From Gemmatimonadota bacterium (GTDB lineage Bacteria; Gemmatimonadota; Gemmatimonadetes; Gemmatimonadales; GWC2-71-9), in contig JBDTTF010000185.1 in the NCBI GenBank assembly GCA_039930765.1, positions 17,441 through 81,440 of the forward strand: DNA of 64,000 nt, read 5' to 3'. Below, in pieces: positions 3,460-39,322 of the stretch; position 1 is the stretch's first letter; the number at the start of each line of letters is the position of its first letter. A model generated the notes under the pieces. The model ran no database searches. It worked only from the letters and a program-made list of their open reading frames with translations, and had not been told where the DNA came from. The position numbers and the translations under genes are program-made.

Positions 3460-3488
3460 TTGACTCCGCCTGAGGCTGCAAGTATCGT
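3460..3488 (+). promoter_or_regulatory. Sigma70-type promoter of the crp-like gene
   Basis: TTGACT-N17-TATCGT. Confidence 0.55.
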
Positions 3489-3525
3489 CCATGCCGATAC
3501 TTCCACCTTCACGGCCGAGGCCTCT

Positions 3526-4203
3526 CTGCCCCTCTCCTCCCTGGCCGTCCTCCGCCGGGTCCCGTTTTTCGCGGGTTTGCCCGATGAAGAGCTGGCTGCC
3601 ATCGCCGAACTGGTCCGTGAACGCGAATATCCCAAGGGAAGCGTCATCCTGTTTGCCGCCGACCAGGGGGACAGCCTGTACCTGGTCGCCGCCGGCGAGG
3701 TGAAGGTGGTCCTGATTGGTGAGGACGGCCGCGAGGTCGTGCTGTCAGTCATGGGCGAAGGCAACTTCTTCGGCGAGATGTCGCTGCTCGACGATGAGCC
3801 GCGCTCGGCCCACGTGATTGCGCTGCAGGACACCCGGCTGCTGCTGCTGCGGCGGGAAGATTTCCGCAGCCGGCTGCGGGCCTCTCCGGACCTGGCGATC
3901 GCGCTGCTGCGCGAGCTGTCACGCCGCCTCCGGCGAGCCGATGATCGGATCGGAAGTCTGGTCCTGCTCGACGTCGGCGGTCGGGTCGCCGACCAGCTGC
4001 TCCAGGCGGCGGATGAGGGCGATGGTGTCGTGATTGCCCGGCGCCTGACCCACCACCTGATCGGGCAGATGATCGGTGCCAGCCGGGAGACGGTGTCCCG
4101 GACCATGCGCGATTTTGTGGAGCGGGGCCTGATCAAGGTGAGCCGGCGCGAGATCACCCTCCTCGACCGGAAGGCACTGGAAACCACCGCCCAGCGCACG
4201 TGA
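3526..4203 (+). CDS. Crp/Fnr family transcriptional regulator (cNMP-binding domain + HTH); start uncertain (TTG 3460 or CTG 3526)
   Basis: Phosphate-binding cassette FFGEMSLLDDEPRSA; CRP-type recognition helix GASRETVSR. Confidence 0.93.
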   Translation: MPLSSLAVLRRVPFFAGLPDEELAAIAELVREREYPKGSVILFAADQGDSLYLVAAGEVKVVLIGEDGREVVLSVMGEGNFFGEMSLLDDEPRSAHVIALQDTRLLLLRREDFRSRLRASPDLAIALLRELSRRLRRADDRIGSLVLLDVGGRVADQLLQAADEGDGVVIARRLTHHLIGQMIGASRETVSRTMRDFVERGLIKVSRREITLLDRKALETTAQRT

Positions 4204-4214
4204 TGACAATCACC
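4199..4214. promoter_or_regulatory. Putative CRP-binding site
   Basis: CGTGA-TGACAA-TCACC matches the GTGA-N6-TCAC core; about 80 nt upstream of the next start codon. Confidence 0.55.
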
Positions 4215-4291
4215 CCCACCAGGTGACTGCTGGTGCGGCATTTTCGGCAGCGTCCAGCAATATTGCTCAACTGTTAGGCCACAAGGAATTC

Positions 4292-5158
4292 GTGAGCTAT
4301 TCCATCACTTTCTGGGGCACTCGGGGATCGATCCCGACGCCAGGCCCCAATACGGCGCGATACGGCGGGAATACGCCGTGCGTGGCCGTCGCCGGCCGAA
4401 TCGATCAGCTGGTGATTCTGGACGCCGGCAGCGGCATTCGGGCGCTGGGCCAGCAGCTCTCGCGAGAGGTGGCGACGGGAGCAAGTCTCGACATCCTGTT
4501 GTCGCACACCCATTGGGATCACATCCAGGGGCTGCCGTTTTTCCAGCCATTGTATGCCAAGGGAAACTCGGTCCGGATTTACGGGGCGCCGCAGGCGGGG
4601 GTGCCGCTCGAGCGTATCCTGGACCGGCAAATGGACCCGATGGTGTTCCCGGTGCCACTCAAGGCGCTGTCGGCCGACCTCAAGATCAATGAGGTCGGCA
4701 CCGGAGAATTCGAGATCGACGGCTTCCGGGTGGAGGCCTACAGACTGCGGCATCCGGGCACCACTCTGGGATACAAACTGACCCCGGTGAGCGGTGGCGC
4801 CTCGGTGGCGTATCTCACCGACAATGAGCTGGGCACCGGCGGGAACTACGATGTACCGACCGACTGGCGTGAAGGATTGGTCCAGTTTCTGGACGGTGTC
4901 CATATGCTGATCCATGACGCGATGTATCCCGATGATTTACTGGACCGTCGAGCGGGCTGGGGACATTCCAGCCCCGGACAGGCCATACGGTTGGCGATCG
5001 ACGCAGGGGTGGCTCACCTCTTGCTGTTTCATCATGAGCCGGAACATGGGGACGTTGAGCTCGATCGAGTGCTCGCCGATGCCCGTGCCCTGGCCCGACG
5101 CACTGCCCCCAAGCTCGTCGTGGATGCTGCCCGAGAAGGGTTGACGCTCAATCTTTGA
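4292..5158 (+). CDS. MBL-fold metallo-hydrolase, putative phosphodiesterase
   Basis: WGTRGSIP, YGGNT.CV, SHTHWDH, TDNE, HDAMY, GHS and FHHEP motifs; GTG 4292 with AAGGA SD. Confidence 0.88.
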   Translation: MSYSITFWGTRGSIPTPGPNTARYGGNTPCVAVAGRIDQLVILDAGSGIRALGQQLSREVATGASLDILLSHTHWDHIQGLPFFQPLYAKGNSVRIYGAPQAGVPLERILDRQMDPMVFPVPLKALSADLKINEVGTGEFEIDGFRVEAYRLRHPGTTLGYKLTPVSGGASVAYLTDNELGTGGNYDVPTDWREGLVQFLDGVHMLIHDAMYPDDLLDRRAGWGHSSPGQAIRLAIDAGVAHLLLFHHEPEHGDVELDRVLADARALARRTAPKLVVDAAREGLTLNL

Positions 5159-5172
5159 GGAGGATGCTGATT

Positions 5173-5865
5173 ATGCGCTGGCGTAACGTGCTGAACCTGA
5201 CGGCAACGGTCGCGCTGCTGACCGGCCCCCTGGCGGCCCAGGATACGAGGCCCGGTATCGCCGTGCTGCCATTCGACAACGGCGGGTCGTTCGGGCAGTC
5301 CAAGGAAGACCTGGCGGCCCTGCAGCAGGGTATTCCCGCCATGTTGATCAGCGAGCTGAGCCACAACGAGGCGGCACGCCTGGTCGATCGCCGGGACGTC
5401 AACCAGCTGCTCAACGAGCAGAACCTGGCCGCCCAGGGGCGGGTCGATGCCGCCACGGCCGCCAAGATCGGCAAGCTGGTCGGCGCCCGCTACATGATCA
5501 TGGGCGGTTTCGTCGATCTCAACGGCGATTTCCGGATCGATGCCCGGATCGTCGATGTCGAAACCAGCGAGATCATCAAGTCGGTCTCAGCCAAGAACAA
5601 GCGCGACAAACTGTTCGACCTGATCCAGTCGATCGCGACCCAGGTCATGACTGAGACCAAGCTGCCTCCGCTCTCGAGCCAGCAGGCCGCGGTCATGAAG
5701 CGGACCGTCCCGACCGATGCGCTGACGTTCTACAGCCGGGCGCTGCTGTACCAGGACCAGGGCGACAACAAGAAGGCGGAGGTCTACTTCCGCAAGGCGC
5801 TGGACGCGTTCCCCAACTTCGCGGAAGCCAACGAAGGACTGAAGAAGGTCACCGCCCCGAGCTGA
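5173..5865 (+). CDS. Secreted CsgG/HfaB/TolB_N-like domain protein with C-terminal TPR
   Basis: Signal peptide ending LAA-Q; IAVLPFDN, LVDR, A.KIGKLVGARYMI.G, ARIVDVETSEI; TPR-like AEVYFRKALDAFPNFAEA. Confidence 0.78.
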   Translation: MRWRNVLNLTATVALLTGPLAAQDTRPGIAVLPFDNGGSFGQSKEDLAALQQGIPAMLISELSHNEAARLVDRRDVNQLLNEQNLAAQGRVDAATAAKIGKLVGARYMIMGGFVDLNGDFRIDARIVDVETSEIIKSVSAKNKRDKLFDLIQSIATQVMTETKLPPLSSQQAAVMKRTVPTDALTFYSRALLYQDQGDNKKAEVYFRKALDAFPNFAEANEGLKKVTAPS

Positions 5866-5866
5866 C

Positions 5867-6652
5867 ATGCGGCGGATCATCGCCTCCTTTGGGAGGCGGC
5901 TGGCGCGCTGGTTCGCCCGGGTGGGCGCACTGGCGCGCTTCTGTTTCGAAGCGGTCGCGGCGTTCCGGACCCTGCCCGGCGCCGGACGCAGGGTTTCGGG
6001 GCGAGTGCTGGCCAACCAGCTCCGTTTCACCGCGCTGGAAGGCACCGGGCTCATCGTCCTGCTCAGCGGTATCCTCAGCTTCCTGGTGATTTCGAGCGCG
6101 GTCCGCCAGCTCGGTTCGGTCGGCGCGACCGACCTGATCGGCCAGTTGATGGTGGTGGTGATCGTCCGTGAACTGGGTCCGCTGCTCACGGCGCTGGCGG
6201 TAGCTGGCCGGAGCGGCACCGCCATTGCCGCCGAGTTGGCCACCAACAGCGTGATGGGCGAGGTCCGGGCGCTCGAAGCCATGGGAATCGAGCCGCTGCA
6301 CTACCTGGTACTGCCACGACTCACGGGCTGCATCGGGTCAGTGATGATGCTGACGGTGGTATTCGATGGTGTCGCGATCCTGGCGGGGCAGCTGGCCGCC
6401 GGTTCCAACGGCATGAGTGCTCCCCAGTACTACAGCGGCGTGCTCGCGACCCTGACCACCGGCGACATCGTGCTCTCCCTGGCCAAGGGGCTCCTCTTCG
6501 GCGCGTTGATCGGGTTGCTGCCCAGTTTTCAGGGACTCAGCGTCAAGCAGGATCCGACCGAGATTCCCCGGGCGGTCATCCGGGCCACCGTCGGCTCCAT
6601 TGCCATGATCTTCGTGACGGCCGCGGTTTTCGTGCTGATCACCGGCGCATGA
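5867..6652 (+). CDS. MlaE-family ABC permease
   Basis: VRELGPLLTAL.VAGRSGTAIAAEL and ALEAMGIEP..YLVLPR motifs. Confidence 0.92.
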   Translation: MRRIIASFGRRLARWFARVGALARFCFEAVAAFRTLPGAGRRVSGRVLANQLRFTALEGTGLIVLLSGILSFLVISSAVRQLGSVGATDLIGQLMVVVIVRELGPLLTALAVAGRSGTAIAAELATNSVMGEVRALEAMGIEPLHYLVLPRLTGCIGSVMMLTVVFDGVAILAGQLAAGSNGMSAPQYYSGVLATLTTGDIVLSLAKGLLFGALIGLLPSFQGLSVKQDPTEIPRAVIRATVGSIAMIFVTAAVFVLITGA

Positions 6653-7365
6653 GTCATCCACTCGAATTCGAAGGAGTGGCACTGGGGCGGCTGCGCCGGC
6701 GGACCCTGGCCCCCTTCGAGAGTGGCGAGCAGAGCGGCGACCCCGGGTTCTGGCTCAACGTGCCGGAGGGTCAGGTGGTGGTGGCCCTCGGCGATGAGAG
6801 CAGCGGCGTCGGGACGCTCGGCTCGGTCATCCTGGGTTTCTCGCTGGTGCCGATCGGGTCCTGCCGGGTCTTCGGGGTGGACTTGTCGACTCTGGGGCGG
6901 CGCGAGTTGCTGAGCTACCGGCGGCGCATCGGATACCTTCCGATTGGAGACGGCCTGCTGCACAATCTCTCGCTGCGCGACAACGTCCGTCTGCCGCTGC
7001 GCTACGGCAGCAACCTGCATCTCTCCGAGATCGAGGAGCGGACCGATCGCATCCTTGACCTGCTGAGGCTGACCCGGTTCAGCGGGCTCAGGCCGGCTGA
7101 CGCCAACGAGGAAGAGCGCCGCCGGGCCGCGCTGGGCCGAGCGCTGGCATTTGATCCGAAGCTGCTGGTCCTGGAGGAGCCGTTCTCGGGAATGACCGAC
7201 CGGTCTTCGGCCGAGCTGCTGTACGCCGCGCGCGGCGACGAGGGTCCCCAGCGCGGCCACCGGACCGTTTTTATCACGGGCCAGAGCCTGCCGGGGCGGC
7301 TGGTGTCCGACATCGACCGGGAGATCATGGTCGTCCGCGGCCAGGCGATCGAAGCCACCACATGA
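6649..7365 (+). CDS. MlaF-like ABC ATPase homolog with degenerate catalytic motifs
   Basis: Scaffold retained (RRRIGY, NLSLRDNV.LPL, R.ALGRALAFDPKLL.L.EP.SG). Walker A reads GDESSGVGT, signature ANEEE, Walker B LLVLEE, H-loop ITGQ. Confidence 0.8.
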   Translation: MSHPLEFEGVALGRLRRRTLAPFESGEQSGDPGFWLNVPEGQVVVALGDESSGVGTLGSVILGFSLVPIGSCRVFGVDLSTLGRRELLSYRRRIGYLPIGDGLLHNLSLRDNVRLPLRYGSNLHLSEIEERTDRILDLLRLTRFSGLRPADANEEERRRAALGRALAFDPKLLVLEEPFSGMTDRSSAELLYAARGDEGPQRGHRTVFITGQSLPGRLVSDIDREIMVVRGQAIEATT

Positions 7366-8282
7366 ATATCAGCAACCGATCCGCCGACCTCCTGCTCGGC
7401 CTCCTTACGGTGGTCGTGGTCGGTGTGCTCCTGACGGCCCTGATCTTCACCGAGGGCTGGAATGAGCGGCGGTTCAACGTGCTGCTGGTTGCCTCCTCAG
7501 CCGAGGTGCTGGAGCCGGGGGCCAAGGTACTGCTTGAAGGGCTCGAAATTGGCCGGATTACCCGGGTGATTCCGCGCGCCGACTCGGCCCACCAGACCAT
7601 GGAGTTCATCGCCACGCTTCGGCTTCGGTCCCGGTTCCCCGATGGCACCGAACTGCGACTGCCATTGGGCACCAGGGCCGAAATCACCGAGCACACCATC
7701 GGCGCCGGGGATGTTACGCTCCGCCTGCCCGCCCAGTGGGCCGGCACGGTGCACGAGGGTGATACCCTGCGGGCGGTCCACAAGCAGCCGGCGATGGATG
7801 CCATGGCGGCAACGGCGGACACCCTGGCCGCCCAACTGCGGATGGTCCTGGGCGACTCCCGGGTGCTGATGGCCAAACTCAACCAGACTGTGGATCACGC
7901 CGACCGGCTGCTGGTCACCACCGGCCCTGTGATCGGCAGCTCGCTGGCCGCACTGGATACGGTGCTGAAGCAGACCAACCGATCGCTGGCCGCCGCCGCC
8001 CAGATCCTGACTGACGAGGGGGCGCGGCTGGGTCCGATGCACGACTCGCTGGCAATGGCGTTGAGCCAGGCCCACGCCACCATGGTCAGCCTGGAGCATC
8101 TCTCCTCGCTCGGCACGACCGTGGCCAACGAGAACCGGGTCGATGTGCACACCACCCTGGTGCAGATCCGGCAGATCAGCGTGAAACTCGAGTACTATCT
8201 CGACCAGATGGGACGCAAGCCGATGCGGTTCTTCACCGGCATCCGGCCGTATCCAGCGGATACCGCGAGGCCCTCCCCGTGA
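7362..8282 (+). CDS. MlaD/MCE domain protein with long helical region
   Basis: N-terminal TM helix, L.PGAKV.LEGLEIGRI, helical C-terminal region ending KPMRFFTG; follows mlaE and mlaF homologs. Confidence 0.82.
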   Translation: MNISNRSADLLLGLLTVVVVGVLLTALIFTEGWNERRFNVLLVASSAEVLEPGAKVLLEGLEIGRITRVIPRADSAHQTMEFIATLRLRSRFPDGTELRLPLGTRAEITEHTIGAGDVTLRLPAQWAGTVHEGDTLRAVHKQPAMDAMAATADTLAAQLRMVLGDSRVLMAKLNQTVDHADRLLVTTGPVIGSSLAALDTVLKQTNRSLAAAAQILTDEGARLGPMHDSLAMALSQAHATMVSLEHLSSLGTTVANENRVDVHTTLVQIRQISVKLEYYLDQMGRKPMRFFTGIRPYPADTARPSP

Positions 8283-10222
8283 AATTTCTCCTGCTGTACT
8301 CGCCCGGCTGGCGCCCCGCTCCGGTAGCGGAGGCGCTGGCGCAGGATCAGGTCGAGTGCCGGCCGCTGGCCCCATCGGATCCGGCCGTGCTCGATGAGCG
8401 GCCGACGGTGTACCTGCTTGATCCGGCCGACCGCGATGAAGCCACTACGCCGAGGCTGGCCGCACTGGTCGAAGCTGGAGTGGCCATCGTGGCGCTGGGC
8501 GCCCTCGATGAGGAGGACCTGCCGGAAACGATGGCGCCCGAACAGCTGGCGGCCTTTGTCCGGGCGCCGGTACCGCCCCGAACCCTGCTGCTGGCGTTGC
8601 GCAGCGCCTTCAAGATTGCGGTTTCCAGAAAAGAGACCGCTCGGGCCCGGGTTGAGGCGGCCGCCCGGTTGAGCGAGCTGACGGAGCTCACCGATATCGG
8701 GATGCGGCTGACCACGGAAAAACATTACGATACCCTGCTCGACCTGATCCTGAGCCAGGCCCGGCGCATCACCCAGGCCGATGCCGGCAGTCTCTACATC
8801 GTGGAGACCTCCGAGACCGGGATCCGGCGGTTGCGCTTCAAGCTGAGCCAGAATCACAGCCGGCCCGACATCCCGTTCGTCGAAACCACCATGACCCTCG
8901 ATCACACCTCGCTGGCGGGCTACGCCGCCACCGAGGGCGAAGCGCTGGTCATCGACGACGTCTACATGCTGCCCAGCGACGTGGCCTACGCCTTCAATCG
9001 TTCATTCGACGAGCGGTACGGCTACCGCACCAAGTCGATGCTGGTCATCCCGATGCAGAACCATCAGTGCGATGTGATCGGGGTGCTGCAGCTGATCAAT
9101 CGCAAGCGGGACGGCGAGGCGGTACTGACCGACACCAATGCCGCCAACCGCCAGGTGGTGGCGTTCAGTCCTCATACCGTCAAGCTGGTCAAGTCGCTGG
9201 CGGGGCAGGCGGCAGTCTCGATTGAGAACAGCCAGCTGTACGAGTCGATCGAGCGGCTGTTCGAGGGGTTCGTCCGCGCGGCGGTCACGGCCATCGAGCA
9301 GCGTGACCCGACCACCTCAGGCCATTCCGAACGGGTGGCGTCGATGTCGGTCGGACTGGCCCAGACGGTGGACCGGGCCGGCGATGGCCAGTACTCCTCC
9401 GTTCACTTCTCACCGGAGCAGGTCAGGGAGCTGCGCTACGCCAGCCTGCTGCATGATTTCGGCAAGGTCGGTGTACGGGAACAGGTACTGGTCAAGGCCA
9501 ACAAGCTGTATCCCGCCGACCTGACGCTGATTCAGCAGCGACACGACTTCATCCTGCGGTCGGTGCAGTGGCAGTACCAAAAATCCCGGGCCGATTTCCT
9601 GGCCGAACATGGACCTGGTGCGGCCTACCTCACTCGCCTGGCCGACCTCGATGCCGAGCTGGCCCGTGAAAAGGGCCGGCTCGACCGGTTCCTGCAGATC
9701 GTGGTCGATTCCAACCGGCCATCGGTCCTGGCCGAGGGCAATTTCACCGCGCTTCAGGAATTTGCCGACAGCCAGTACAACCTGATCGATGGCGCCACCG
9801 CGCCGTTCCTGAGCGGGGACGAGGTCCGTTTCCTCAGTATCCGCAAGGGCAGCCTCGATGAGCGCGAACGACTCGAGATTGAGAGCCACGTCACCCATAC
9901 CTTCGGTTTCCTGCGCAAGATTCCCTGGACCCGCGAGCTGAGCCTGGTGCCCACGATTGCCCACGGCCATCACGAGAAACTCAACGGCTCAGGCTATCCC
10001 CGGCACGTTGGCGGCGCCGAGATTCCGATCCAGACCCGAATCATGACCATCGCCGATATTTTCGACGCGCTGACGGCCCAGGACCGGCCCTACAAGCGGG
10101 CCCTGCCGGCGCCCAAGGCGCTGGATATCATGACGGAAGAGGTCCAGGGCGGGATGCTGGATCAGGAGTTGTTTCGATTGTTCGTGGAAGGCAAGGCCTT
10201 CGAGCAGGCGCGGGCGATGTAG
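8279..10222 (+). CDS. GAF + HD-GYP domain cyclic-dinucleotide phosphodiesterase, with an N-terminal degenerate receiver-like region
   Basis: GAF (ADAGSLY, GYRTKSMLVIPM, GVLQLIN); HDFGKVG, HHEKLNGSGYP and IADIFDALTA.DRPYK. Confidence 0.92.
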   Translation: MKFLLLYSPGWRPAPVAEALAQDQVECRPLAPSDPAVLDERPTVYLLDPADRDEATTPRLAALVEAGVAIVALGALDEEDLPETMAPEQLAAFVRAPVPPRTLLLALRSAFKIAVSRKETARARVEAAARLSELTELTDIGMRLTTEKHYDTLLDLILSQARRITQADAGSLYIVETSETGIRRLRFKLSQNHSRPDIPFVETTMTLDHTSLAGYAATEGEALVIDDVYMLPSDVAYAFNRSFDERYGYRTKSMLVIPMQNHQCDVIGVLQLINRKRDGEAVLTDTNAANRQVVAFSPHTVKLVKSLAGQAAVSIENSQLYESIERLFEGFVRAAVTAIEQRDPTTSGHSERVASMSVGLAQTVDRAGDGQYSSVHFSPEQVRELRYASLLHDFGKVGVREQVLVKANKLYPADLTLIQQRHDFILRSVQWQYQKSRADFLAEHGPGAAYLTRLADLDAELAREKGRLDRFLQIVVDSNRPSVLAEGNFTALQEFADSQYNLIDGATAPFLSGDEVRFLSIRKGSLDERERLEIESHVTHTFGFLRKIPWTRELSLVPTIAHGHHEKLNGSGYPRHVGGAEIPIQTRIMTIADIFDALTAQDRPYKRALPAPKALDIMTEEVQGGMLDQELFRLFVEGKAFEQARAM

Positions 10223-36094: not shown

Positions 36095-37381
36095 ATGTCA
36101 CGTCGAATGAAGCTGGGTCTCGCCTTCGGGATTCTCGTGGTCCTGATCGGCGCCGTGGTCGCCCTCTCCGCTGCCAAGAAGAACGGCAAGGCCGTCGAGG
36201 TCCGGATGGACCAGGTCGGCTCCCGGGACCTGGTCTCGGCGGTGACGGCCAGCGGCAAGATCCGACCCAAGACCTCGGTCGATGTCAGCCCCGACATCCA
36301 GGGCCGGATTACCAGGATCGGCGTGAAGGAAGGCGACCTGGTCCGAAAGGGTCAGTTCCTGCTGCAGATCGATCCGGCGCAATATGAAGCGGCGCTGGCC
36401 CGGGCCAAGGCGCTCATGGCGTCCTCCCAGGGCGACCTGATTCGCGCCAAGGCCAATATGGAACAGGCCAAGCGAATTGCAGACCGGAACGTCGAATTGC
36501 AGAAGGCAGGGACCAACCTCGTCTCCCCCGAAACCGTGGAGACCGCCACCACGAATTACGATGTGGCAGTGGCCAACTACAGCTCGTCCAAGGCCTCGAT
36601 CGACCAGGCTCAGGCGGGATTGCGGGATGCCGAGCAGGCGCTGGCCAAGACGACCCTGACCTCGCCGATCGATGGCCGGGTGGTGCGGCTGCCCAAGGAA
36701 GTTGGTGAAGTCGCGGTGCCCGGCACCTTCTCGGCCGATGTCGGCCTGTTGATGACCATCGCCGACCTGTCCGTGATCCTGGCCAAGGTGCAGGTCGATG
36801 AAACCGACGTGGTGCGGCTGCACCTCGGTGATTCGGTGCGGGTCTCGATCGATGCCTTTCCCGATACCGCGTTCGTGGGACGGGTGACCAAGATCAGCAA
36901 CAGCGCCCAGCTGACCTCGACCTCGACCGCCTCGGGTTCCAACGACAAGGCCGTGGACTTCGATGTCGAGGTGACCCTGGCCCATCCGCCGGCCGATGTC
37001 CGGCCCGACCTGTCGGCCACCGCGCGGATCGTGACCGACACCCGGAAGAACGTCCTGAGCATTCCGATTATCGCGCTCACCGTGCGGTCCAACGAAACGG
37101 TCCCCAATGAATCGGTCAAGCAGGACACCACCAAGAAGCCCGGCGACAAGAAGGATGCCGAAGGGGTGTTCGTGGTGAAGGACGGCGTGGCCAACTTCCG
37201 GCCGGTCAAGGTCGGAATTGCGGGTGACGAGTACTTCGAGGTGGTGGAAGGCCTCAAGGCGGGCGAGACGATCGTGAGCGGCAGCTACCAGGCCATCCGC
37301 GACCTGCACGATGGCACCAAGGTCAAGGCGCCCAAGGCCGACAGCGGCCAGGGCAAGAAGATGGAGATGAAGAAGTCATGA
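36095..37381 (+). CDS. MacA-like periplasmic adaptor subunit
   Basis: V.ASGKI.P, GRI..I.VKEGD.V.KGQ, SPIDG.V, VDETDV, EVVEGLK.GE.IV.G. Confidence 0.92.
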
Positions 37382-38076
37382 GCGATGCGGTGATCCAGGT
37401 CCGCCACATGACCCGCGAGTACGACATGGGGGGCGAGCTGGTTCACGCCCTCCGCGGGGTGTCGCTGCTGATCCGGCGCAACGAGTATGTGGCCATCATG
37501 GGACCCTCGGGCAGCGGCAAGTCGACGCTGATGAACATGCTGGGCTGCCTGGACACCCCGACGGCCGGCGAGTACTGGCTCAACGGCCAGGAAGTCAGCC
37601 GGATGTCGGACGATGCGCTGGCCCGGGTGCGCAACAAGGAAATCGGGTTTGTGTTCCAGACTTTCAACCTGCTGCCCCGCTCCACCGCGTTGCAGAATGT
37701 CGAGTTGCCGCTGGTGTATGCCGGCGTGACGTCGAAGGACCGGCGCAAGCGGGCCGAAGAGGCGCTGGATCGGGTCGGACTCGGTCATCGGATGGAGCAC
37801 CGCCCCAACGAACTGTCGGGCGGCCAGCGCCAGCGGGTGGCCATCGCGCGAGGCTTGGTCAATCGGCCCTCGATCCTGCTGGCCGACGAACCGACCGGCA
37901 ACCTGGACAGCACCACCAGTGATGAGATCATGGCGGTCTTCGGCGAGCTCAAGCGGCAAGGCCAGACCATCATCCTGGTCACCCATGAGCCGACCATCGC
38001 CGCCTATGCCGAACGCACCGTTGTCCTCAAGGACGGCCGGGTCGATTCGGACACCCTGAGCCAGCAGGCCGCCTGA
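37378..38076 (+). CDS. MacB/LolD-type ABC ATP-binding protein
   Basis: [40 protein letters not shown]; all catalytic motifs intact. Confidence 0.95.
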
Positions 38077-38077
38077 G

Positions 38078-39322
38078 ATGCCGTTGTTCGAAGCGGTCCG
38101 GATGGCGCTCCGGACCATCGTCTCCCAGAAGCTCAAGAGCTTCTTCTCGCTGATCGGCGTGCTGATCGGGGTCACCTTCCTGATCGCGGTCGTCTCGATC
38201 GTGCAGGGCATGAACGTGTACATGGAAGATCAGTTTGCCAACCGGCTGATCGGCCTCAACACGTTCTCGCTCCGGACCTTTCCGGGGATCCAGACCGGCA
38301 ACACCACGCGGGACACCTGGCGGGAATACATGCGCCGGCCCCGGATCAGCTACGACGATGCCGAGTACATCGAGACCCACCTGCAGACGCCCGTCATCAC
38401 CGCCCGGTATTGCTCGGACCGGATGACGCTGACCTACGGTACCAAGCAGGCCAAGGACATTGAGCTCGACGGCACCGAGCCGACCTACTTCCAGATCAAG
38501 AACATCGACCTCAGCAGCGGGCGGATCTTCAGCCAGGAAGAGGTTCGGGCCGGACTGCCGGTGCTGGTCATCGGCAGCGAGCTCGGCGAGAAGCTGTTCC
38601 AGGGCGCCGACCCGCTGGGCAAGGAAGTCCTGATCCGGGGATTGCCCTACCGGGTCATCGGCGTGGCTGCACCCCGCGGGACGCTGTTCGGCACTTTCTC
38701 GCTCGACAAATTTGCGGTGATGCCGTTCCGGGCCCCGGCCCGTCGCTACATCTGCAAGCTCAACATCCTCGACGAGCTCGAAATCAAGGCCGCCAATCCA
38801 ACGGCCATGCTGGCGGCAATGTCCGAGACTGAGGGGCTGATGCGGACCCGCCGGGGGCTCAAGCCGGGCCAGAACAACAATTTTGACCTGTCCGACTCCA
38901 AGGCCGCCCTGGAAGGCTGGAAAAAGATTGCCAAGGTCCTCGGTACGGCGCTGCCGGGACTGGTGGCCATTTCGCTGGTGGTCGGCGGTATCGTGATCAT
39001 GAACATCATGCTGATGGCCGTCACTGAGCGGACCCGCGAGATCGGAATTCGCAAGGCGCTGGGCGCCAAGCGGCGTGATATCCTGGCCCAGTTCGTGGTC
39101 GAAAGCGTGACGCTGTCGACCGTCGGTGCGGCGCTGGGCGTGGGAACCGGAATCGCGCTGGCCTTTGCGGTGCGGGCCCTGACACCGCTGCCGGCTGCGG
39201 TGGCGCCGTGGTCGATAGCCGTTGGTGTACTCCTTGGAATGCTGGTGGGCGTGGCGGCCGGTGTATATCCCGCCAGCCGGGCCTCCAAGCTGGACCCGAT
39301 CACGGCCCTCAGGGCCGAGTAA
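38078..39322 (+). CDS. MacB/FtsX-family ABC permease (type A copy 1)
   Basis: GGIVIMNIMLMAVTERTREIGIRKALGA; YPA.RASKLDPITALRAE. Confidence 0.93.
   Translation: MPLFEAVRMALRTIVSQKLKSFFSLIGVLIGVTFLIAVVSIVQGMNVYMEDQFANRLIGLNTFSLRTFPGIQTGNTTRDTWREYMRRPRISYDDAEYIETHLQTPVITARYCSDRMTLTYGTKQAKDIELDGTEPTYFQIKNIDLSSGRIFSQEEVRAGLPVLVIGSELGEKLFQGADPLGKEVLIRGLPYRVIGVAAPRGTLFGTFSLDKFAVMPFRAPARRYICKLNILDELEIKAANPTAMLAAMSETEGLMRTRRGLKPGQNNNFDLSDSKAALEGWKKIAKVLGTALPGLVAISLVVGGIVIMNIMLMAVTERTREIGIRKALGAKRRDILAQFVVESVTLSTVGAALGVGTGIALAFAVRALTPLPAAVAPWSIAVGVLLGMLVGVAAGVYPASRASKLDPITALRAE

Follow-up and report, generated by a model that had tools for sequence, protein, structure and literature searches.

The window, i.e. 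the whole stretch of 64,000 nucleotides analyzed here (contig JBDTTF010000185.1, positions 17,441 to 81,440 of the forward strand; assembly GCA_039930765.1, a soil bacterium of the Gemmatimonadota, order Gemmatimonadales), contains a pseudo-nucleotide-binding domain, below called psF, encoded between the genes for an MlaE-type permease and an MCE-domain protein:

6649..7365, + strand: psF, a protein with the fold of an ATP-binding cassette (ABC) nucleotide-binding domain (NBD), in which every motif for ATP binding or hydrolysis is swapped for other, conserved residues

With a probability of roughly 70%, psF is a catalytically dead, structurally intact NBD that serves as the dedicated cytoplasmic subunit of a third, accessory Mla/MCE-type envelope system (the MlaE, psF, and MCE genes together being called the cassette) in some Gemmatimonadales. 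Judged from the sequences compared, the novelty would lie in an Mla/MCE ABC-type system of an otherwise known kind with a motor subunit that is conserved but dead in both sites.

The open reading frame codes for a full-length protein of 238 amino acids and is coupled to both neighboring genes, as a preliminary description of this DNA, made from its letters alone, had noticed; both junctions are 4-bp ATGA overlaps (gcgcATGAgtc and accacATGAata). It matched the Pfam family ABC_tran (PF00005) over residues 36-179 with 40.2 bits, a weak score that is above the cut-off of 25, and the NCBIfam MlaF equivalog NF008809 with 52.2 bits, well under a cut-off of 441 that is strict for this phylum, as the two canonical MlaFs of the same genome remained below it too (175 and 165 bits). 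The closest solved relatives were the Acinetobacter baumannii MlaF chains 7d06_B (E 6.6e-17) and 6z5u_K (E about 7e-17). Alignment with 7d06_B, or, for the H-loop, comparison with the genome's own canonical MlaFs, confirmed each of the five substitutions that had been read in the preliminary description:

Walker A: GPSGTGKTT in MlaF, G48-DESSGVGT in psF; Lys replaced by V54 and Ser/Thr by G55
Q-loop: MLFQS in MlaF, YLPIG in psF; Gln replaced by I99
Signature: LSGGMNRR in MlaF, ANEEERRR in psF (residues 152-159)
Walker B: LIMYDEP in MlaF, LLVLEEP in psF; Asp replaced by E176
H-loop: VTHD in the canonical MlaFs, TGQS in psF; His replaced by Q212

Besides the Walker A Ser/Thr, psF has lost the D-loop Asp (T183), and the catalytic Glu following Walker B is retained in this copy (E177). 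The structural scaffold, which had been supposed to be kept, was recovered in an AlphaFold2 (AF2) model with a mean predicted local distance difference test score (pLDDT) of 87.8 and a predicted TM score of 0.87. This model matched the solved NBDs of MacB, MetN, LolD, FtsE, and MlaF over the RecA-like core and the helical subdomain (Foldseek TM 0.77-0.83), with values of 0.80-0.82 for MlaF structures, including 6xbd_I and 7d06_B. As a control, a string check found GKS/GKT as well as SGG in 43/43 other ABC NBDs of the genomes compared (33 MlaFs adjoining a canonical MlaE and 10 other ABC proteins) and either string in 0/20 pseudo-NBD rows of the same list; similarly, all motifs are canonical in a MacB-type NBD encoded in the window itself (37378-38076). 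As far as its sequence tells, psF is an ABC NBD with an intact predicted fold that has lost the motifs of a catalytically competent ATPase. Since its P-loop lacks the Lys and carries Asp and Glu instead, its signature is rich in Glu, and the net charge of the pocket amounts to about -5, binding and hydrolysis of ATP are not expected, and psF should do neither.

The losses are a property of the family, not of the present copy. Motifs were counted in 97 distinct orthologs and, additionally, in the 120 of 314 further database clusters that matched psF at E 1e-20 or better:

Walker A Lys: 0/97 orthologs, 0/120 clusters
Walker A Ser/Thr: 5/97 orthologs, 0/120 clusters
Q-loop Gln: 5/97 orthologs, 0/120 clusters
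Signature Ser: 9/97 orthologs, 3/120 clusters
Either signature Gly: 0/97 orthologs, 0/120 clusters
Walker B Asp: 6/97 orthologs, 3/120 clusters
Catalytic Glu: 17/97 orthologs, 49/120 clusters
H-loop His: 5/97 orthologs, 0/120 clusters

The position of the catalytic Glu is occupied by Gln in 46/97 orthologs. The replacement residues are themselves conserved among the 97 orthologs, with Val, Leu, or Ile at the Lys site in 95, E50 in 88, A99 in 81, E155 in 96, E176 in 82, and Q212 in 70 of them, and the corresponding consensus motifs read G[D]ExSG[V/L/I], GYLPAGDGLLQNL, RPAQANEE[E/D]RRR, LV[I/V]LE, and TGQ. The same substitutions are common to orthologs that are only 45-55% identical. As intact motifs were found in neither close nor distant orthologs, lineage-specific decay is excluded. 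In addition, the ratio of nonsynonymous to synonymous substitution rates (dN/dS, NG86) of psF was 0.080, 0.229, 0.118, 0.132, 0.268, and 0.196 in six unsaturated pairs (dS < 0.9), compared with 0.071-0.336 for the adjacent MCE gene and 0.010-0.234 for the MlaE gene, which is more constrained; in this respect, psF resembles the MCE gene and the GAF-HD-GYP gene that follows it. A full-length psF frame was present in 104 other loci. By these sequence criteria, the psF family is evolutionarily maintained and not decaying. The psF of the window and an ortholog of the same genus (L014, L015) share a long private branch of 0.79 substitutions per site within the family, and psF of this genus is more diverged than most, with I99 and G55 at positions that are occupied by Ala in 81 and by Asp in 46 of the 97 orthologs, respectively.

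A search of the genome with NF008809 retrieved no orphan MlaF. Two MlaF-like genes only were present, each beside its own MlaE and both with canonical motifs (GTGKS, LSGGMRKR, YDEP, and VTHD), and all other proteins scored at most 108 bits, as generic ABC proteins. Matches to MlaA (PF04333) and MlaC (PF05494) numbered zero in this genome, for which marker genes indicate 100% completeness. Both canonical MlaE-MlaF loci (L004 and L005) lie on very short contigs (C130 and C258, about 2.4 and 4.2 kb), and the MCE gene of the system on C130 was not assembled with that system. Together, the orthologs, the dN/dS values, and this search support the earlier proposal that psF would be retained for a non-catalytic role.

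The permease gene upstream of psF represents a type of MlaE of its own:

5867..6652, + strand: cassette-type MlaE permease (PF02405, 173.8 bits), ending in a stop codon that shares ATGA with the start of psF

It is the third MlaE of the genome and the one with the lowest score. When a complex of two copies of this MlaE and two of psF was predicted, the score was 0.64, versus 0.00 for the best of three controls, whereby the score concerns solely psF against MlaE and holds no information on contacts between NBDs; the mark used is reached by 116/157 solved complexes and by 2/215 mismatched pairs. Three runs agreed in at least 97% of the contacts, and the partner pLDDT was at least 76. The contacts were predicted at positions 130-142 (the coupling helix), 35-43, and 227-231 of MlaE and at positions 62, 64, 85, 88-98, 102-106, 115-120, 148, 150, and 164 of psF, the coupling helix of MlaE facing residues 88-120, 148-150, and 164 of psF, which form the most invariant block of the family. 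Identity of at least 90% was found at 16/24 predicted interface positions versus 39/178 elsewhere (Fisher p 1.8e-5), and the former ATP-site positions were not above background conservation (5/19, p 0.63), these position-wise statistics being descriptive only, as the orthologs are related. The mean net charge of P-loop plus signature was -5.1. On the side of the permease, 100 cassette and 28 canonical MlaE sequences, split by locus of origin, differed at 17 positions at which each group is at least 85% conserved, and five of these (39, 40, 131, 132, and 231) fall within the predicted interface. The changes of the cassette MlaE comprise an AGR insertion at 39-41, the replacement of TEQ by xGE in the coupling helix, and positions 231-234. 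Furthermore, the alignment showed that psF has no counterpart of the C-terminal extension of the canonical MlaFs, an extension that touches the neighboring MlaF according to the accessible part of PMC10665443.

The conserved docking surface, the private MlaE interface, and the unconserved ATP site point to selection on docking to a co-evolved MlaE instead of on nucleotide chemistry, and psF is for that reason read as a dedicated non-catalytic scaffold subunit. Based on these sequence comparisons and the predicted complex, a scaffold role of psF and an ATP-independent operation of the complex are probable. With its Q-loop and the groove of its helical subdomain, the pseudo-NBD would dock on the coupling helix of the MlaE paralog that belongs to it, in a complex of the needle-MCE kind that would probably contain six MCE subunits and two copies each of MlaE and the pseudo-NBD, a stoichiometry that we infer. 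It is probably retained because the permease dimer would need a partner with the shape of an NBD in order to assemble or to be stable, and it may serve as a docking platform for cytoplasmic partners as well. The activity of the complex, be it that of a lipid conduit, a tether, or a sensor, would then not draw on an ATP cycle within the complex itself.

Orthologs of psF have a narrow distribution, with strong matches confined, in the genomes sampled, to two families of the Gemmatimonadales. They were found in 25/61 related genomes (E 1e-39 to 1e-154, 45-96% identity), namely 13/37 of family f1, to which the genome analyzed here (G000) belongs and in which it is counted, 12/12 of family f3, and 0/12 of family f2; the remaining related genomes yielded nothing beyond generic ABC matches near 1e-20. 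Among 301 genomes sampled evenly across the phylum, a strong match was obtained in 42, i.e. 39/125 of f1 (G000 included) and 3/3 of f3, and in 0/173 genomes from ten other families. Weak hits in G081 and G169 (about 1e-31, from other families) were considered as intermediate forms and proved to be ordinary intact MlaFs. A pattern scan of species-representative genomes gave at least 336 confirmed relatives, the best 80 of which all occurred in records titled Gemmatimonadota, Gemmatimonadales, Gemmatimonadaceae, or Gemmatimonadetes. Only few representatives at 50% identity scored high against psF in a library of 1.8 billion proteins, indicating that the family is narrow. Concerning the same genus, no psF ortholog was found in the searched portion of G001, and the third MlaE of G002 was rejected as a psF cassette, as it sits in a different, fragmented Mla-like locus. 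In that locus (L160:2700-4600, on G002:C4), the MlaE frame stops early and only an N-terminal piece of an NBD is present, with GCGKST intact; G002 is odd in that its assembly of 3.7 Mb in 6 contigs has a completeness score of only 57%.

In a maximum-likelihood tree of 67 NBDs, from which the partial rows L035 and L038 and the G016 locus were left out, the pseudo-NBDs formed one clade (support 100/97) with a stem length of about 2 substitutions per site, separate from the clade of canonical MlaFs of the same genomes (99/98), with a placement that is unsure because of the long branch. Descent from MlaF specifically is thus suggested by the gene context and the best solved match and not by the tree. 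Within the pseudo-NBD clade, the f3 sequences formed one subclade (100/100) and the f1 sequences fell outside of it, a branching that would fit mostly vertical descent with repeated loss. A usual genome has two canonical MlaE proteins, at 215-265 bits, and psF-bearing genomes have a third one at 172-195 bits in addition, which indicates that the cassette is accessory.

The cassette is part of a cluster of seven genes on one strand, in the order Crp, MBL-fold, CsgG/TPR, MlaE, pseudo-NBD, MCE, and GAF-HD-GYP. All seven were present in 66/80 Gemmatimonadota loci, the other 14 ended at contig ends, and exceptions numbered zero. Apart from MlaE and psF, the members are the following:

3460..4203, + strand: Crp/Fnr-family regulator that opens the cluster, with a cyclic nucleoside monophosphate (cNMP)-binding domain and a helix-turn-helix domain (cNMP_binding 91.9 bits, HTH_Crp_2 67.2 bits; synteny)
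4223..5158, + strand: metallo-beta-lactamase (MBL)-fold hydrolase (Lactamase_B_2 67.9 bits; synteny)
5155..5865, + strand: secreted protein with a CsgG/LpoB-like domain and TPR (PF03783 65.5 bits, TPR_1 28.8 bits)
7362..8282, + strand: MCE-domain protein of the needle type, the start of which overlaps the psF stop codon (ATGA)
8279..10222, + strand: GAF and HD-GYP phosphodiesterase with a degenerate receiver-like N-terminus (HD_5 100.1 bits, GAF 54.6 bits)

The MCE assignment is borderline by profile, with 23.2 bits for PF02470 (cut-off 25.1), 25.5 bits in a six-frame search, and E 3.3e-11 for TIGR00996, and the best solved match was 13hr_I, an Mce/MlaD protein of 312 amino acids (E 6e-4, residues 5-262). 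The AF2 monomer, used for secondary-structure topology only because its mean pLDDT of 59.7 is low, displayed a helix at 4-30 (transmembrane), strands at 37-140 (the MCE beta-barrel), and helices at 144-179, 188-219, and 226-284. The CsgG/TPR gene lies immediately 5' of the cassette MlaE in every locus that reaches that far, and no lipobox Cys was seen by eye in the N-terminus of its product. The GAF-HD-GYP gene, which overlaps the MCE stop codon by 4 bp, is immediately downstream in every locus that reaches that far; the HD, HHE, and GYP motifs are intact in its translation, and residues 1-110 show, in an alignment inspected by eye, a degenerate receiver-like pattern. An MlaB/STAS-like module was considered for this N-terminus and set aside for the receiver-like one. 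The Mla-like genes are thus embedded, over 3460-10222 of the window, in an invariant cluster rich in cyclic-nucleotide parts (the cNMP-binding Crp regulator, GAF, and HD-GYP). All seven sequencing data sets listed for 5155-10222 are of DNA or of unspecified type, with none of RNA, and do not bear on expression.

Several observations weigh against a catalytically dead scaffold. To our knowledge, an MlaE-type permease working without ATP hydrolysis is not known from any studied system. Moreover, the P-loop residues G48, E50, S52, and G53 and the signature residue E155 are each at least 90% conserved, and the RRR following the signature is invariant (R158 and R159 in 97/97). A pure scaffold leaves such near-invariant residues of the former ATP site unexplained, so that something may still bind there. 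In addition, E177, the catalytic Glu, is retained in this copy, and its Walker B position still bears a carboxylate. Finally, the successful docking may only mirror the resemblance to solved MlaFE complexes, i.e. likeness and not binding, to which the descriptive nature of the position-wise statistics mentioned above is to be added. In an unlikely alternative, the site would have been re-purposed, and the remade pocket, with its acidic P-loop GDExSGV[D/G], Glu-rich signature, and adjacent RRR, would bind a cyclic (di)nucleotide, a divalent cation, or the receiver-like-GAF-HD-GYP protein encoded in the same cluster. On such a view, psF would gate or report the state of MlaE and MCE, and the system would be a conduit or sensor linked to a second messenger instead of a plain scaffold; extended, which seems just as unlikely, an ABC lipid transporter would have become a trans-envelope conduit or sensor connected to cyclic-nucleotide signaling. 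The MCE needle and MlaE would perceive the lipid state of the envelope, and this state would be linked to the turnover of second messengers or vice versa, a loop that the Crp-family regulator and the MBL-fold hydrolase would complete. The near-invariance of the pocket (E50 in 88/97, S52 in 89, G53 in 94, E155 in 96, and both R158 and R159 in all 97 orthologs) and the constant position of the GAF-HD-GYP gene directly downstream and of a cNMP-binding regulator at the head of the cluster speak for a re-purposed site. However, the former ATP-site positions as a set are not above background conservation (5/19), a gene neighborhood alone is weak evidence of physical contact, and the N-terminus of the HD-GYP protein resembles, by eye, a degenerate receiver and not MlaB, the STAS protein that binds MlaF.

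The preliminary description had left open whether the complex is not ATP-driven or borrows an ATPase encoded elsewhere, as mycobacterial Mce systems do with MceG. The sequence comparisons and the predicted interface favor the former, in that the complex would not be driven by its own NBD. The latter, with one of the two intact MlaFs powering the cassette by displacing psF or by entering a mixed dimer, is distinctly improbable. Such MlaF genes do exist in the genome, and MceG is common to Mce1-4 (excerpts of PMC13492129), but each MlaF adjoins its own MlaE and no copy is an orphan. The analogy with MceG is also weak because mycobacterial mce operons do not encode an NBD and the cassette does, in the form of a protein under purifying selection, because the best-conserved surface of psF is the predicted MlaE contact, and because the cassette MlaE has cassette-specific fixed residues in its coupling helix and the two other contact segments. 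The lack of an orphan MlaF and these changes of MlaE at its own NBD contact thus make borrowing after the manner of MceG unlikely; besides, a mixed dimer would, given ABC architecture, have one degenerate half in both composite sites. That psF binds and hydrolyzes nucleotide by a non-canonical mechanism is very hard to accept. This copy has E177, a Glu at the position of the Walker B Asp, and the conserved P-loop glycines G48 and G53, but the Walker A Lys and the signature glycines occur in 0/97 orthologs and 0/120 clusters, the catalytic Glu is present in only 17/97 orthologs, with Gln in 46, and a pocket with a net charge of about -5 should repel a triphosphate. Practically negligible is the chance that psF is a decaying pseudogene or an artefact of assembly or annotation. 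Its Pfam score is low (40 bits) and the cassette is patchy among relatives; these facts are outweighed by the full-length frame in the 104 other loci, the dN/dS of 0.08-0.27, the confidently predicted fold, and the recurrence of the same substitutions at 45-55% identity.

Among the nearest known systems is that of MlaF in MlaFEDB (Escherichia coli 6xbd/6xgy, A. baumannii 7d06/6z5u, and Pseudomonas aeruginosa 7ch8), which has the same fold and provides the best solved sequence match. Like MlaF, psF is encoded between MlaE and MCE genes and is predicted to dock on the MlaE coupling helix; unlike MlaF, it has every ATP motif replaced, is devoid of the C-terminal extension, and stands outside the canonical Gemmatimonadota MlaF clade. 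This genome also differs from the proteobacterial six-component Mla system in that no MlaA or MlaC was found in it. PqiABC and LetAB are reported to be MCE envelope systems without an ABC module or an ATPase subunit of their own and are thought not to be powered by an ATP cycle. Lack of an own ATPase is the functional state proposed for the cassette, and by analogy the complex may be functionally closer to these Pqi and Let systems, even though their inner-membrane partners PqiA and LetA belong to a different family and the cassette retains MlaE plus an NBD-shaped subunit. The Brucella Mla-Pqi chimera Mpc is said to have an architecture resembling that of the psF cassette. As in psF, catalytic residues have been lost from a retained ABC NBD in CFTR and heterodimeric type I exporters. 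There, the degeneracy is confined to one composite site of the two, which continues to bind ATP; in the psF complex, one gene would supply both NBDs, so that neither site would have the Lys of Walker A, the signature, the Gln of the Q-loop, or the His of the H-loop.

Two described MCE systems come close from other sides. The P. aeruginosa PA3211-PA3214 system consists, in the accessible part of PMC13631591, of an MlaE-like permease, an NBD, an MCE protein of about 310 amino acids with a helical needle, and an envelope partner, an architecture that matches that of the psF cassette. The 312 amino acids of 13hr_I equal the length given for PA3213 in the same part of PMC13631591, an agreement in length that does not identify 13hr as PA3213. 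The excerpts of PMC13631591 describe PA3212 simply as an ATPase, with degeneracy unmentioned, and name a PqiC-like lipoprotein as the outer partner, in contrast to the CsgG/LpoB-like and TPR protein encoded upstream here. The mycobacterial Mce1-4 systems (8fed) likewise combine MlaE/YrbE and MCE proteins, and an NBD has a stabilizing role in them. MceG is, in the excerpts of PMC13492129, the shared intact orphan ATPase of Mce1-4, the mce operons having no NBD gene, and it also stabilizes the Mce complexes, while Mce1N, a non-ATPase located at the NBD docking site, keeps the Mce complex unpowered. The difference is that the cassette operon encodes its own dead NBD and that no orphan MlaF was found. 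The passages covered of a phylogenomic survey of Mla components (1083 genomes in its Dataset 1) mention no fully degenerate NBD (PMC10665443). An NBD of this fully degenerate kind at the MlaF position of an Mla/MCE operon was not encountered in full-text searches of the literature either, and relatives of psF are labeled 'ATPase subunit MlaF', 'ATP-binding cassette domain-containing protein', or similar in public databases.

Loss of catalytic motifs was encountered outside the psF family as well. A second, rarer, and more degenerate NBD lineage, without a recognizable P-loop, Q-loop Gln, or LSGG, occurred in 4/301 sampled genomes of the phylum, belonging to three families (L040:1357-2037 in G024; L155, L156, and L157). 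In L040, it is encoded between MlaE and MCE genes and after a PP2C-like gene, without CsgG/TPR or HD-GYP genes. In the tree, this lineage joins the pseudo-NBD clade by a long branch (support 100/98). Furthermore, the next-best single-domain representatives of the 1.8-billion-protein library (P0028, P0030, P0034, P0035, P0038, P0040, P0043, P0044, P0053, and P0056) have degenerate signatures, such as LNDEL, LNEGE, and LSPAE; several are without the catalytic Glu or the H-loop His, and most retain the Walker A GK[ST]. This indicates that motif loss in MlaF-like NBDs may be broader and, as far as these sequences go, may extend beyond the psF family. One of them, P0028, is a fully degenerate NBD of another lineage, and a metagenome scan for its locus returned only matches of about 22% identity. 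Elsewhere in the window, 36095-39322 holds an ordinary MacA/MacB-type trio of an HlyD-family protein, the canonical ABC NBD mentioned above, and an FtsX-like permease. An apparent in-frame TGA in the ABC match of this MacB-type NBD was rejected, as it is the stop codon of the upstream gene.

Mla/MCE systems are central to the movement of lipids between the membranes of two-membrane bacteria, and both their direction and their energy source are debated. The psF cassette would be a natural 'ATP-off' machine, which raises the question of what an NBD contributes beyond energy, be it assembly, stability, or conformational locking, and would allow a test of whether an MlaE-type permease passes or holds lipids passively. 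In this respect, it would be cleaner than Walker mutants made by engineering, as its other components have evolved together with the loss. The public annotation of psF proteins as ATPases needs correction. Finally, the invariant cluster may provide a link between envelope lipids and cyclic di-GMP/cNMP signaling in an abundant, poorly studied soil phylum.

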